From Armatimonadota bacterium (lineage in GTDB: Bacteria > Armatimonadota > HRBIN16), in the NCBI GenBank assembly GCA_963677485.1, contig OY781964.1, forward strand, positions 704,001 through 768,000: DNA of 64,000 nt, read 5' to 3'. Both the position numbers and the translations under genes were made by a program. Of this stretch, positions 16,291-19,231 are shown piece by piece. Within the stretch, counting starts at the first letter, position 1. The number at the start of each line of letters is the position of its first letter. Below the pieces are notes generated by a model. It was not told the DNA's origin and did no database searches. It saw only the letters and a program-made list of their open reading frames with translations.

Positions 16291-16947
16291 ATGAATATAA
16301 AACCTGAAACTAAATTCATGCTTACCGTTGCGGCCGTCGTAATCGTGTTAGGGGCCGTGACGGCCACGATCAACACAATCGCAAATCGTCCACCCGCGCC
16401 TCCGAAGGTCGCCAAGCCTGCGCGCGAGATATTTGATACCTCAGACCGTCCCTTTATTGGCCCGGCCGATGCGCCTGTGGTGGCCATCCAATTCAGCGAC
16501 TACTCCTGCCCTAGCTGTGCCCGCGGATCGCGACTGATACAGGAGCTCGTGAAACAATATAACCCCAAGCTCAAAATCGTGTTCCGCAATCTGCCCATGA
16601 CTAACATGCATCCCCTGGCTATGGAGCTGGCAGCGGCCGCAGAAGCCGCCCGGCTACAAGGCAAGTTCTGGGAGATGCATGACATGATGTATGCTAACCA
16701 GGACGATGCCGCCAGTAATATTCGTAAATATGCGAAATTCATCGGTATGGACATGAAGAAATTCGATGCAGACCGCGATGGTGAGGAGGCCCGCGTGGCC
16801 GTCACCAAAGACATGGAGCTGGCAGGCCGGTTTGGTATCAATAGCACCCCCTGCTATGTGCTGTTTGACGGCAACAAAGCCGGGATGATATACAGCGGCA
16901 ACGGCAAGTTTGAGCCTGCGTTGAAGAAGCTGATGGAATCCAAGTAG
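16291..16947 (+). CDS. DsbA-family thiol-disulfide oxidoreductase
   Basis: FSDYSCPSC, QGKFWEMHD, GINSTP; N-terminal anchor; adjacent to VKOR. Confidence 0.9.
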   Translation: MNIKPETKFMLTVAAVVIVLGAVTATINTIANRPPAPPKVAKPAREIFDTSDRPFIGPADAPVVAIQFSDYSCPSCARGSRLIQELVKQYNPKLKIVFRNLPMTNMHPLAMELAAAAEAARLQGKFWEMHDMMYANQDDAASNIRKYAKFIGMDMKKFDADRDGEEARVAVTKDMELAGRFGINSTPCYVLFDGNKAGMIYSGNGKFEPALKKLMESK

Positions 16948-17218
16948 ATACTGTGGCTTTTGTCAAGTCCCCAGGGGCAAATCTGGGGATTTGGACCTGA
17001 ATATCAGACACTGGCTCTAGACCACGTAGAATAACGTTAATGTGATGTTTGTGGCATATAGACCAAACCTGGATCCGCGACAGAAACAGGCTCAGATGGC
17101 ATCAGTTGGTCCGTAGCACCTCACATGACGCTCGGAGTCGCGAACGGACGTGCGACATCTTCGTGGCTTCGAAAGATATCGTTATGCTTCGATGCGTGCT
17201 ATCGGCAGACTGCCGCAG

Positions 17219-18511
17219 CTAGGATACTGGTGTCAGAACCCTCGGTTTGTTGCCCACCCGACTGCGCGATGGCCGGTTTCGGGATGCGGGCCGACCACCG
17301 CCGGCAGGAGTGGGCTCATTGGTGGGATTTCCATCCACGCATCCCCGTCTTGGAACGCTCACGTCCAGCCCAGGATCATTGCCTACACCGGCTATATCAT
17401 GGGCCGCTCCGGCACGATCCTGGACATGTCCGTTCGCGTCGGTCAGCGGTTGCTGGTTGGCCGCATTTGAAGCTTGTTCGATGCCGAAGTTTGGATCATA
17501 TGGCTGACGGCTGATTAATACCGACCACATGAGCACCAGCTGCTTGCGCATGATTGCGCACCGGACAACTCGCTTGGACTTCGGTTTCTTATTGGGATTC
17601 TTTACCAAATTCGGATGCTGCAGTTCCTTCACGAAGTCGTGCATGCTCTGGCCAAGCTTTTTCGACTTACCGTTGACCATCTTCACCACAGTGCTCGATC
17701 CACAGTAGAGTAATGTCCGCATATATCGGTCACCCATCTTGGATATGGAGCCGTCGTATGTCTTGCAGCTTCCTGACCGTTGCGGGCAGGGGTTCATTCC
17801 GAAATAGCGCGCGACCGCTTTCGATGTTTCAAATCGTTTAGCATCACCGATTTTCGCAAGGAAATAGCTTGCTGTGACGTCGCCGATACCCGGAATGCTC
17901 TTCAGCAGAGCCATATCTTCGGTCATCTGCGGTGAACTCATCACAAGCTCTTTGATCTGAACATCAAGCTTTTTGATGCCCATGTCATGAAAAGCGATCA
18001 TCTCGTCCAGCACTGTGCTCCGCGTAAGCCGACAGCTTTGGCGCTGGGCGATCGCCTGTCTGTGTTGCACCAGCATACGGCGGTCATTGGTGTAACCAAT
18101 AAGCGCATCATAGCATGCTAGACGAGGGACATAGAGTGAGACATTGTGACTTTTCACATAGTCAGCGATTAGCACGCTGTCAGAGCAGTCCGTCTTTTGT
18201 TCCCAGCCTTTGGCTTTGCGGTGATAGAGAACCCGTTTTGGCTCCAGTTGGACAGCATCGTGCTGGTGCTCGTAGAGGTAATCAAGCAGCGGTCGGCTGT
18301 AAGGCCCGGTGGCTTCAGCCGCATACAAGGCGGGAGTTCGGGTAAGCTTCTTCACCCATGACAACAACTCCTTGTATCCGGCCTTGTTGTTCTTGAACTC
18401 CTTATGGTCTATCGGCTTGTGCGATGAACCTAATACAGACGCGTCAAACGTCAATTTCGAGATGTCGATCCCGACATAATGGATGTAGATTTTGTCTTCA
18501 ACTTCGTGCAT
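17219..18511 (-). CDS. IS110-family DEDD (RuvC-like) recombinase/transposase with a long C-terminal extension
   Basis: YVGIDISK, EATGPY, KTDCSDS, SIPGIG, QRSG (Tnp serine), ISKMGD; GGAG RBS before the ATG at 18511. Confidence 0.95.
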   Translation of the reverse strand: MHEVEDKIYIHYVGIDISKLTFDASVLGSSHKPIDHKEFKNNKAGYKELLSWVKKLTRTPALYAAEATGPYSRPLLDYLYEHQHDAVQLEPKRVLYHRKAKGWEQKTDCSDSVLIADYVKSHNVSLYVPRLACYDALIGYTNDRRMLVQHRQAIAQRQSCRLTRSTVLDEMIAFHDMGIKKLDVQIKELVMSSPQMTEDMALLKSIPGIGDVTASYFLAKIGDAKRFETSKAVARYFGMNPCPQRSGSCKTYDGSISKMGDRYMRTLLYCGSSTVVKMVNGKSKKLGQSMHDFVKELQHPNLVKNPNKKPKSKRVVRCAIMRKQLVLMWSVLISRQPYDPNFGIEQASNAANQQPLTDANGHVQDRAGAAHDIAGVGNDPGLDVSVPRRGCVDGNPTNEPTPAGGGRPASRNRPSRSRVGNKPRVLTPVS

Positions 18512-18544
18512 GTGGTAATCTCCAGTTGGTAGTGATTGATGGTG

Positions 18545-18745
18545 CAATCAACCAAATCAGCCTAGCGAACACGGGGTTTTCTCCCAAGATACTGTTCGAT
18601 ATGGGTTGATTGGGAGAAGGATGCCTATCTACGTCACGGTGTTTTCCACCAGGGGCGGTTCCGGCATCCAATCCTTCTCCTTCACCCCCAGCTAAGGGGT
18701 GAGATTAGCTCCCCGACTGCTTTTGGTGTCCGGGGAGCTCACCAT
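18545..18745 (-). ncRNA. Bridge RNA of the IS110 element (5' hairpins, target-binding loop, donor-binding loop); ends approximate
   Basis: Target guides GAACCGCCCCT (18651-18661) and GACGTAG (18629-18635) inside the GGATGCC/GGCATCC stem; donor guides ACAGTATCT (18587-18595) and GCTAG (18562-18566) inside the CAATCAACC/GGTTGATTG stem. Confidence 0.85.
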
Positions 18746-18791
18746 ATATAGCGTACTAGGGGCGGTTCGCGAACCGCCCTTGCATATGATC

Positions 18792-18991
18792 CTTCGCGTG
18801 AGACCTCCCTATTCGTGGTTAAATGGCCCGGACAAGTAAGATGAGTCAGACGTGTAGGACGTGAGGCCCACCTCATCGGCATCATCTGCGCCAGCGGTGG
18901 ATGGTCCTTCGCGTCTTCGCGTCTTCGCGTGAAACCTCCCTGTTCGTGGTCAAATGGCCCGGGCAAGCAAGATGAGTCAGACGAGTAGGAC
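18792..18991. repeat. About 69-bp imperfect direct repeat, two copies, with a (CTTCGCGT)x3 microrepeat
   Basis: CTTCGCGTGA.ACCTCCCT.TTCGTGGT.AAATGGCCCGG.CAAG.AAGATGAGTCAGACG.GTAGGAC at 18792-18860 and 18923-18991. Confidence 0.85.
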
Positions 18992-19031
18992 ATCTGGTTA
19001 GCCACCCATACCAAACACCGCCCGGGGGCTC

Positions 19032-19060
19032 TTGACAAACTGCCCATTGTCTGGCATAAT
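19032..19060 (+). promoter_or_regulatory. sigma70-type promoter for tRNA-Met / hisS-aspS
   Basis: TTGACA, 17-nt spacer, CATAAT with an extended TG, 12 nt before the tRNA. Confidence 0.8.
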
Positions 19061-19072
19061 ATTTTTGCCTAT

Positions 19073-19149
19073 GGCGGAGTAGCTCAGTTGGTCAGAGCAT
19101 ACGGTTCATACCCGTAGGGTCGACGGTTCAAATCCGCCCTCCGCTACCA
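19073..19149 (+). tRNA. tRNA-Met (CAU), elongator type
   Basis: GGCGGAG acceptor stem, TACGG-TTCATAC-CCGTA anticodon arm, GGTTCAAATCC T-arm, encoded CCA; lacks the initiator C1:A72 mismatch. Confidence 0.93.
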
Positions 19150-19231
19150 ACTTTCACTGGCGACAACCGCGCAAGCAGTTGTCGCTTTTTTCATTCACGG
19201 CACCTGATAGGTCTTCAAAGGAGAACAGCCC

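Follow-up and report, generated by a model that had tools for sequence, protein, structure and literature searches.

The question raised by this locus is whether the non-coding sequence upstream of an IS110-family recombinase gene in the window (the whole stretch of 64,000 nucleotides from an Armatimonadota bacterium that was analysed here) encodes a bridge RNA that specifies both the ends of its own mobile element and the site of its insertion. Our answer is that positions 16946-18757 on the minus strand are very probably an intact IS110-group insertion sequence, designated IS-A, which is IS621-like in operation. This conclusion is drawn from the anatomy of the element, the homology and catalytic residues of its recombinase, a conserved RNA fold, concordant insertions, an empty orthologous site and the co-variation of guides with targets. 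IS-A joins a known class, as the initial annotation had pointed out; the class and its mechanism are already well described, and our findings leave the known mechanism unchanged. New in this clade are variations, namely about 0.5 kb of extra 3' sequence and a conserved RNA hairpin, and the natural evidence for guide-directed targeting is unusually clean.

The left end of IS-A is non-coding over 246 nt; a frame of 430 codons follows (18511-17219 with the stop), and 273 nt lie beyond the stop codon (Table 1). Its boundaries are fixed independently of the repeats by a sister species of the same genus (genome G001), in which the orthologous thioredoxin-like gene (85% identity) is directly followed by AG-GGGCGGTTCGCGAACCGCCC(+), an LT-CT-RT arrangement in which the core occurs once and the element is missing. 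The CT core, single in this empty site, is found at each junction of an inserted copy, and the duplication extends no further (12/12 copies). In the window, the element is inserted exactly at the stop codon of the thioredoxin/DsbA-like gene (16291-16947(+)). The duplicated CT core keeps the TAG stop of this gene, which is intact but parted from the hairpin that the sister species has after it.

Table 1. Features of IS-A, its bridge RNA and its insertion site, in window coordinates
Feature	Position	Strand	Basis or remark
IS-A element, 1812 bp including the 3' CT core	16946..18757	-	12 genome copies with identical ends; empty site in sister species
REP-like palindromic hairpin GGGCGGTTCGCGAACCGCCC; the arm adjoining the element is the left target	18760..18779		44 family sites in genome, 10 with an element copy
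Left target (LT) ACCGCCC, target positions 1-7	18760..18766	-	same as bridge RNA 18659-18653
CT core, left copy	18758..18759	-	one CT in empty orthologous site, two once inserted
Right donor (RD) AGTACGC, first bases of left end	18751..18757	-	complementary to right donor guide 18572-18562 in discontiguous register
-10-like hexamer TACGCT	18750..18755	-	predicted; 17 bp from -35 box only in circular form; 3/6 to TATAAT
Bridge RNA 5' stem-loop	18707..18741	-	single and consensus folds; second small hairpin at 18702-18682
Target-binding stem-loop (TBL)	18613..18680	-	folds, covariance model, alignment
Left target guide (LTG) ACCGCCCCU	18651..18659	-	flank identity reaches 18661
Right target guide (RTG) GUAG	18629..18632	-	complementary to CT-AC; GAC 18635-18633 possible extension
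Handshake guide AUA	18626..18628	-	predicted from IS621 scheme; complementary to donor positions 5-7 (TAT)
Donor-binding stem-loop (DBL)	18546..18610	-	folds, covariance model, alignment
Left donor guide (LDG) ACAGUAUC(U)	18587..18595	-	same as right end 16954-16946
Right donor guide (RDG) GUGU-(UC)-G-CUAG, then one handshake G at 18561	18561..18572	-	IS621 scheme; 2 positions covary with RD
Recombinase gene, 430 aa + stop; family profile ends at aa 336	17219..18511	-	Pfam, NCBIfam, structure match
Conserved RNA hairpin of ~140 nt in 3' extension of recombinase frame	17318..17468	-	folds, alignment; also L118:2514-2664(+), L106:1546-1696(-)
-35 box TTGACA in right end, pointing outward	16961..16966	-	conserved in IS-A, IS-B, IS-C and L098
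Left donor (LD) ACAGTAT, last bases of right end	16948..16954	-	sequence
CT core, right copy	16946..16947	-	12 copies and empty orthologous site
Right target (RT) AC; overlaps stop codon of thioredoxin-like gene 16291-16947(+)	16944..16945	-	sequence, ORF list

The recombinase carries the Pfam domains DEDD_Tnp_IS110 (PF01548) and Transposase_20 (PF02371), with a DEDD RuvC-like N-terminal domain and a Tnp C-terminal domain that bears the catalytic serine. It scores 180.6 bits against the cut-off of 140 for NCBIfam NF033542 ('IS110 family RNA-guided transposase'), and its sole two matches among solved structures are IS621 (8wt6, E 2.5e-28, over an alignment limited to residues 10-274) and ISCro4 (9t56, E 5e-26). 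The catalytic residues described for IS621, D11, E60, D102, D105 and S241 (PMC11208158), align opposite D16, E66, D108, D111 and S246 of the IS-A protein, and these five are invariant across 8 clade members. The fold family and all five catalytic residues are thus common to both proteins, in agreement with the intact IS110 recombinase that had been claimed for this locus; the IS-A protein is longer, with 430 aa against the 328-residue IS621 PDB chain.

With regard to the non-coding left end, four matches to the junctions had been reported, and all of them are found on the minus strand. The string GAACCGCCCCT (18661-18651(-)) is identical to the left flank plus core at 18768-18758 (11-nt match), and ACAGTATCT (18595-18587(-)) repeats the right end plus core, 16954-16946 (9-nt match). 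The GTAG within GACGTAG (18635-18629(-)) is complementary to the core and right flank CT-AC, and GCTAG (18566-18562(-)) pairs with the left-end CTAGT through one G:T. Chance agreement was estimated by shuffling the left end (247 nt) 20,000 times with its dinucleotides preserved. The left flank plus core was matched over at least 9 nt in 30/20,000 shuffles and the right end plus core in 13/20,000, and both were matched over at least 7 nt in 2/20,000.

The minimum-energy fold of 18757-18511(-) (z = -3.2; 0/200 shuffles as good) consists of a 5' stem-loop, a small hairpin and two successive stem-loops with large internal loops. The strands of the first internal loop are GGAACCGCCCCU and UGACGUAGAUA, those of the second CAUAUCGAACAGUAUCU and GUGUUCGCUAGGCUGAUUU, and both guide pairs sit on the two strands of these loops, where the initial annotation had placed them. 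The consensus fold of three sequences, IS-A and its sister elements IS-B and IS-C (see below), is the same as the single-sequence fold, with its 5' stem-loop as well as both internal-loop stem-loops, so the fold is conserved, and it is conserved with compensatory changes.

A covariance model of the two loop-bearing stem-loops of IS-A, IS-B and IS-C matched 5/72 loci of distant recombinases (22-40% identical by best segment) at E <= 1, each time immediately upstream of the gene. Among the 4 matched loci with enough flank, the LDG 8-mer recurs downstream of the gene in 4/4 and the LTG 8-mer recurs exactly upstream in 2/4. In the resulting alignment of 8 sequences, 94% of cells pair and 24/29 pairs are changed on both sides, a level reached by 0/500 shuffles and to be compared with 3-9 such pairs in slid controls, these pairing statistics being favoured since the alignment was fitted to the covariance model. 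Bridge-RNA model R1 gave no second copy within IS-A, and it left two enterobacterial IS621-like loci (L025, L028) unmatched at E <= 1. A search of 16500-19200 against Rfam 15 at E <= 1 returned a tRNA only and no bridge-RNA match, the presence of such a family in Rfam being itself not established.

These parts can be read against the scheme published for IS621, which gives a 9-nt LTG, an RTG to positions 8-11, an 8-nt LDG, a discontiguous RDG in which two bases stay unpaired and T12 faces a G, and two handshake bases after each 3' guide (Durrant et al. 2024, Hiraizumi et al. 2024). As far as this scheme describes them, each RNA part has its counterpart in IS-A in the same order and register, so that the proposed IS621 bridge-RNA architecture with a CT core holds throughout. 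In both elements the RNA is encoded in the left end and comprises, besides the 5' stem-loop, one loop that binds the target and one that binds the donor. The two also agree in a 9-nt LTG that equals the top strand, a 4-nt RTG that pairs with CT-AC and an 8-nt LDG, and in the CT core, handshake guides of 2-3 nt and REP-type targets; the split of the promoter across the circle junction in IS621 is a prediction for IS-A. IS-B and IS-C agree with IS621 at all the donor positions given for it (6-14), and IS-A departs from them at 10 and 14, with its guides changed to match. Read in the same way, the handshake bases of IS-A pair as AUA with donor T5-A6-T7 and as G with target C7, whereas only one base pairs per loop in IS-B and IS-C, and the left donor guide of IS-C has one natural mismatch. 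Unlike IS621, IS-A has the left target ACCGCCC, the extra 3' sequence of about 0.5 kb with its conserved hairpin, and a host in the Armatimonadota.

By analogy with IS621, the transcription, circular form and catalysis of IS-A may be pictured as follows. IS-A would be excised as a circle that joins the right end, CT and the left end, and this junction would set the right-end TTGACA 17 bp from the left-end -10-like TACGCT. Joined by eye, the ends of IS-A read TTGACA-17 bp-TACGCT (9/12 of the consensus) and those of IS-B and IS-C read TTGACA-17 bp-TATGCT (10/12); in the integrated IS-A, no sigma-70-like site was found on the minus strand upstream of the RNA. The putative junction promoter would produce a bridge RNA of about 200 nt. 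As read from the sequence, the first loop contains ACCGCCCCU, which equals the left target plus core on the top strand, and GUAG, complementary to CT-AC; the second contains ACAGUAUC(U), which equals the right end plus core, and GU..G-CUAG, complementary to CT-AGTAC. Once strands are exchanged, the handshake guides (AUA after GUAG and G after CUAG) could pair with the strand arriving from the other DNA. The DEDD/serine recombinase would swap strands at the CT core, and this exchange would put IS-A beside the 3' arm of the GC-rich REP-like hairpin.

The genome of 5.22 Mb, assembled as one contig, holds 12 copies of IS-A, ten of 1812 bp and two of 1796 bp; a blastn search of plasmids gave no match. 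The left end is preceded by CT in 12/12 copies, and the right-end CT is followed by AC in 11/12 and by AT in one. Ten of the 12 lie at one arm of the REP-like palindrome GGGCGRTTCGCGAAYCGCCC (44 genome sites). The right flanks past AC do not match the possible RTG extension GAC.

The specificity of insertion was estimated by removing the copies in silico and classing all N7-CT-AC sites on both strands by their mismatches to ACCGCCC; the twelfth copy, with the AT flank, falls outside this count. Occupancy was 6/9 for perfect sites, 4/148 with one mismatch, 0/584 with two, 1/1986 with three and 0/26,779 with four or more, that is, 1/29,349 for all sites with at least two mismatches. The difference was significant both between no mismatch and one (Fisher's test, p = 8.7e-7) and between one or fewer and more (p = 1.5e-22). 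Against this pattern stand one insertion at a three-mismatch site, one with AT on the right, and three perfect sites that are empty. The target ACCGCCC-CT-AC and the donor ACAGTAT-CT-AGT(ACGC), which had been predicted from the single copy in the window, fit the 12 junction pairs and the orthologous empty site, and the sites of the other 11 copies follow the guide.

Several GC-rich palindromic repeat families end in ...CCC-CT-AC, such as GGGCGGGG-nnAC-CCCGCCC (about 50 copies) and GGCCGGCACAAGGCACGGCCC (both in the genome of IS-A, G000); the genome is therefore rich in near-targets, nearly all of which are unused. We also noticed five element-free hairpin-repeat sites (G000:C1 near 1990835, 2010704, 2382966, 2851067 and 1903922) at which the repeat is followed by CT (once CA) and the first 6-7 bases of IS-A (AGTACGC or AGTACG). 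They resemble left junctions without an insertion, and two of them lie within a 234-bp paralogous repeat. We considered these REP-CT-AGTACGC sites as excision scars and rejected the idea, because exchange at the core would leave LT-CT-RT and no element sequence follows.

Two sister elements allow the guides to be compared with changed targets. IS-B has 2 copies in the genome of IS-A and a recombinase 45% identical to that of IS-A; IS-C has 9 copies in G001 and is 85% identical to IS-B in DNA. The left target guide of IS-B is GUCGCGCCCCU, and its sites are CGCGCCC-CT-ACG and CCTGCCC-CT-ACG. That of IS-C is GGGUCAUCCCU, and 8/9 of its sites are GGGTCATCC-CT-ACG; the ninth has an unrelated left side and CT-AT. 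Over 137 columns the bridge RNAs of IS-B and IS-C differ 14 times; the 11-nt LTG strand accounts for 5 of these differences (p = 0.0017) and the opposite strand of the same loop for 3. Similarly, at donor positions 10 and 14, where IS-A is unlike IS-B and IS-C, its right donor guide differs at the pairing positions too. G001 contains 31 unoccupied GTCATCC-CT-AC sites, versus 3 for a reversed-pattern control. The initial annotation had listed the effect of loop changes on specificity among its grounds for refutation, and these natural variants do go with changed insertion sites, on the basis of three elements in two sister genomes and not of many independent lineages. As judged from these sequences, a natural change of guide may move an element from one genomic hairpin-repeat family to another.

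An explanation that shares much of this evidence is that the recombinase mainly recognizes the GC-rich REP-like hairpin and that RNA pairing is a secondary check. We consider this unlikely on balance, though it is the most serious of the alternatives. For ISPpu10 of Pseudomonas putida, a 'dual-match' logic is described in which the target is set by RNA pairing and a hairpin on the 5' side, with a structural gate (bioRxiv 10.64898/2026.03.19.712850), and by that description ISPpu10 is like IS-A in inserting beside the GC-rich stem-loop of an intergenic repeat. In IS-A, IS-B and IS-C alike, a GC-rich hairpin supplies its 3' arm as the left target (GGGCGGTTC/GAACCGCCC, GGGCGCGG/CCGCGCCC and GGATGACC/GGGTCATCC), a compensated hairpin is kept at every occupied one-mismatch site, and the one-mismatch sites outside hairpins are all unoccupied. 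The hairpin may therefore have a role in the target of IS-A. However, about 50 CCCGCCC and about 20 ATCGCCC hairpins, one mismatch off, are nearly all empty and the perfect-match family is nearly full, which indicates that the guide match, not the hairpin alone, decides. The position of the mismatch (1-2 versus 3-7) is confounded with the presence of a hairpin, and the two effects are inseparable here. It is also conceivable that the left-end strings are protein-binding DNA sites (subterminal repeats) and that there is no guide RNA; as DNA, the strings do repeat the junction sequences in direct orientation, and the RNA is predicted here from sequence. This reading is very improbable, given that the strings occupy the two facing strands of internal loops and the fold is preserved through compensatory changes between recombinases only 25-45% identical, that the 3' strands of the loops are complementary and not identical to the flanks, as pairing with the other strand requires, and that RNA guidance is demonstrated, in the reported structures (PMC11208158), for IS621, a homologue of the protein.

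The guide-directed reading also has to be weighed against the possibility that IS-A is an immobile, fixed relic, its copies stemming from an old burst or from segmental duplication. In each of five public runs, 0.99 or more of the words sampled from a 2.7-kb stretch are present, with the same sequence in all five, and the assembled contigs of 4 of these runs contain neither a circle junction nor an empty-site joint. This would fit a relic, but contigs drop rare variants, so the absence of such junctions there says little. On the other hand, the flanks differ on both sides among the 12 copies, which are therefore not duplicated segments, and the copies are only 0-2 substitutions apart: 5 are identical, 5 differ by 1-2 substitutions, and 2 share a 16-bp deletion. 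The frame and catalytic residues are intact in 10/12. The deletion, at element positions 685-700, splits the frame in the copies at G000:C1:1369196-1370991 and G000:C1:1871159-1872954 (L011, L012), and its presence at two different sites implies that a defective copy was mobilised in trans. Accordingly small is the chance we give to the relic, and the similarity of the copies suggests that IS-A was recently active.

With regard to lineage, among the best 120 matches in 5.8 billion proteins, 7 cover more than 90% of the recombinase, of which five are 61-95% identical (P0001-P0005, short metagenomic contigs, protein only) and two 41-42%; the rest of these 120 have 34% identity or less and coverage of at most 80%. 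In a one-genome-per-species collection, the sole near-full-length relatives more than 40% identical (query residues 3-413) are the IS-C copies, which were found with an alignment query and not with a single-protein query. The best named matches of the host's IMP dehydrogenase (70-71% identity) belong to genomes labelled Chthonomonadales or Armatimonadetes, in keeping with a host in the Armatimonadota. Two of 40 related genomes have a recombinase match at E <= 1e-30, and a literature search gave no paper pairing IS110 with Armatimonad-. The suggestion of an unstudied lineage is thus plausible, the closest recombinases in one-genome-per-species collections being at most 42% identical apart from the sister species.

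In addition, the three elements differ from their relatives at the 3' side. The combination of a long left with a short right end in the IS110 group, a descriptive and not a mechanistic trait, is not seen in the IS-A clade; IS-A, IS-B and IS-C have 273-376 nt of non-coding sequence past the stop codon and about 90 codons beyond the family profile. Compared with L098, a 32%-identical relative that ends canonically with its stop codon inside the -35 box and a short right end directly after, this amounts to the extra 0.5 kb or so in all three. The IS1111 group, described as having a short left end and its guide RNA in the right end (PMC11208160), likewise has a long right end, but the bridge RNA of IS-A is in the left end.

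The most conserved part of the extension is 17468-17318(-), which begins just past the end of the family profile and folds into the hairpin of Table 1. The z values of the sense strand are -3.3, -4.55 and -4.58 in the three elements (0/200 shuffles each), compared with -0.95 for the antisense strand (34/200 shuffles as good). Over the three elements, 93.5% of the cells of its 51 pairs do pair, and 9 pairs are changed on both sides, against 3.8 +/- 1.4 in shuffles (0/500) and 0-2 in slid controls. Between IS-A and IS-C, synonymous change is depleted in the hairpin (7/25 identical-residue codons differ, versus 37/70 in the N-terminal part), and the excess of third-position change is lost in this region. 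The frame lengths vary (430, 387 and 400 aa among the three elements), and residues 342-430 have pLDDT values of 21-33 with no secondary structure in an AlphaFold model built on a shallow alignment (mean pLDDT 59.9), suggesting that the tail of the recombinase is probably disordered. The 3' hairpin is thus a candidate RNA element, as judged from three sequences of two lineages, and possibly a new accessory RNA structure.

We examined other origins for the conservation of the hairpin. An RNA complementary to the left end, like Ssr9 (see below), was rejected, the duplex z values being -1.5, -0.5 and +0.8, as was likeness between the hairpin and the left end, which share no words beyond the known left donor guide. 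Capture of a genomic repeat was rejected since the genome has no copies outside the elements; a search of 401 genomes of the phylum gave only two short, weak matches. An antisense gene is unsupported: in the three elements no frame but that of the recombinase stays open through the hairpin and past it, and one antisense frame is stop-free across the hairpin itself, as expected of a near-palindrome.

A parallel in the literature is ISPpu9 of Pseudomonas putida, for which a small-RNA module, Ssr9, is reported downstream of the transposase gene; it is described as a separately mobile, MITE-like unit whose sequence is complementary to that of an antisense RNA from the 5' region (PMC12288879). Judged by this account, ISPpu9 is like IS-A in being an IS110-family element with REP targets and, 3' of the recombinase gene, an added module related to RNA. 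Unlike Ssr9, the hairpin of IS-A has no complementarity to the left end, lies inside the frame and was not found outside the element. The 3' hairpin may act in cis on the recombinase message, through its stability, processing or translation, and hence on copy number; it may instead serve as a decoy or cofactor bound to the recombinase. Taking the observations together, we tentatively propose, as a reading with a little less than an even chance of being right, that this clade has gained a third RNA part, the 3' hairpin, and that its target guide has been rewritten in nature. The hairpin, if functional, would constitute an unreported regulatory layer.

IS-A provides a bridge-recombinase system with a defined target and donor and a presumed activity, accompanied by two sisters with other target guides. 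Its genome amounts to a natural specificity experiment, in which few perfect sites are left free, insertions at one-mismatch sites are rare, and a copy that is itself defective was mobilised in trans. Such natural tolerance data are of the kind sought by bridge-recombinase engineers.

Finally, several minor features of these genomes were recorded. The two IS-B copies are L118:1242-3031 (G000:C1:1296596-1298385) and G000:C1:2667677-2672037. One IS-B copy is split by an IS21-family element (L124:102-2594) with 29-nt inverted ends, which encodes IstA (rve and Mu-transposase C domains) and the IstB ATPase. Two IS-C copies, L100 and L102 (G001:C1:5014205-5017696), share one orientation and are separated by 2.27 kb, with a separate hairpin repeat for each. 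In the window, two copies of another repeat (18792-18860 and 18906-18992; 91% identical over 69 nt), which start with short tandem units of the CTTCGCGT type, lie between IS-A and a tRNA gene (19073-19146(+)). Parts of this repeat recur about 60 times in the genome, and the read depth is raised there.
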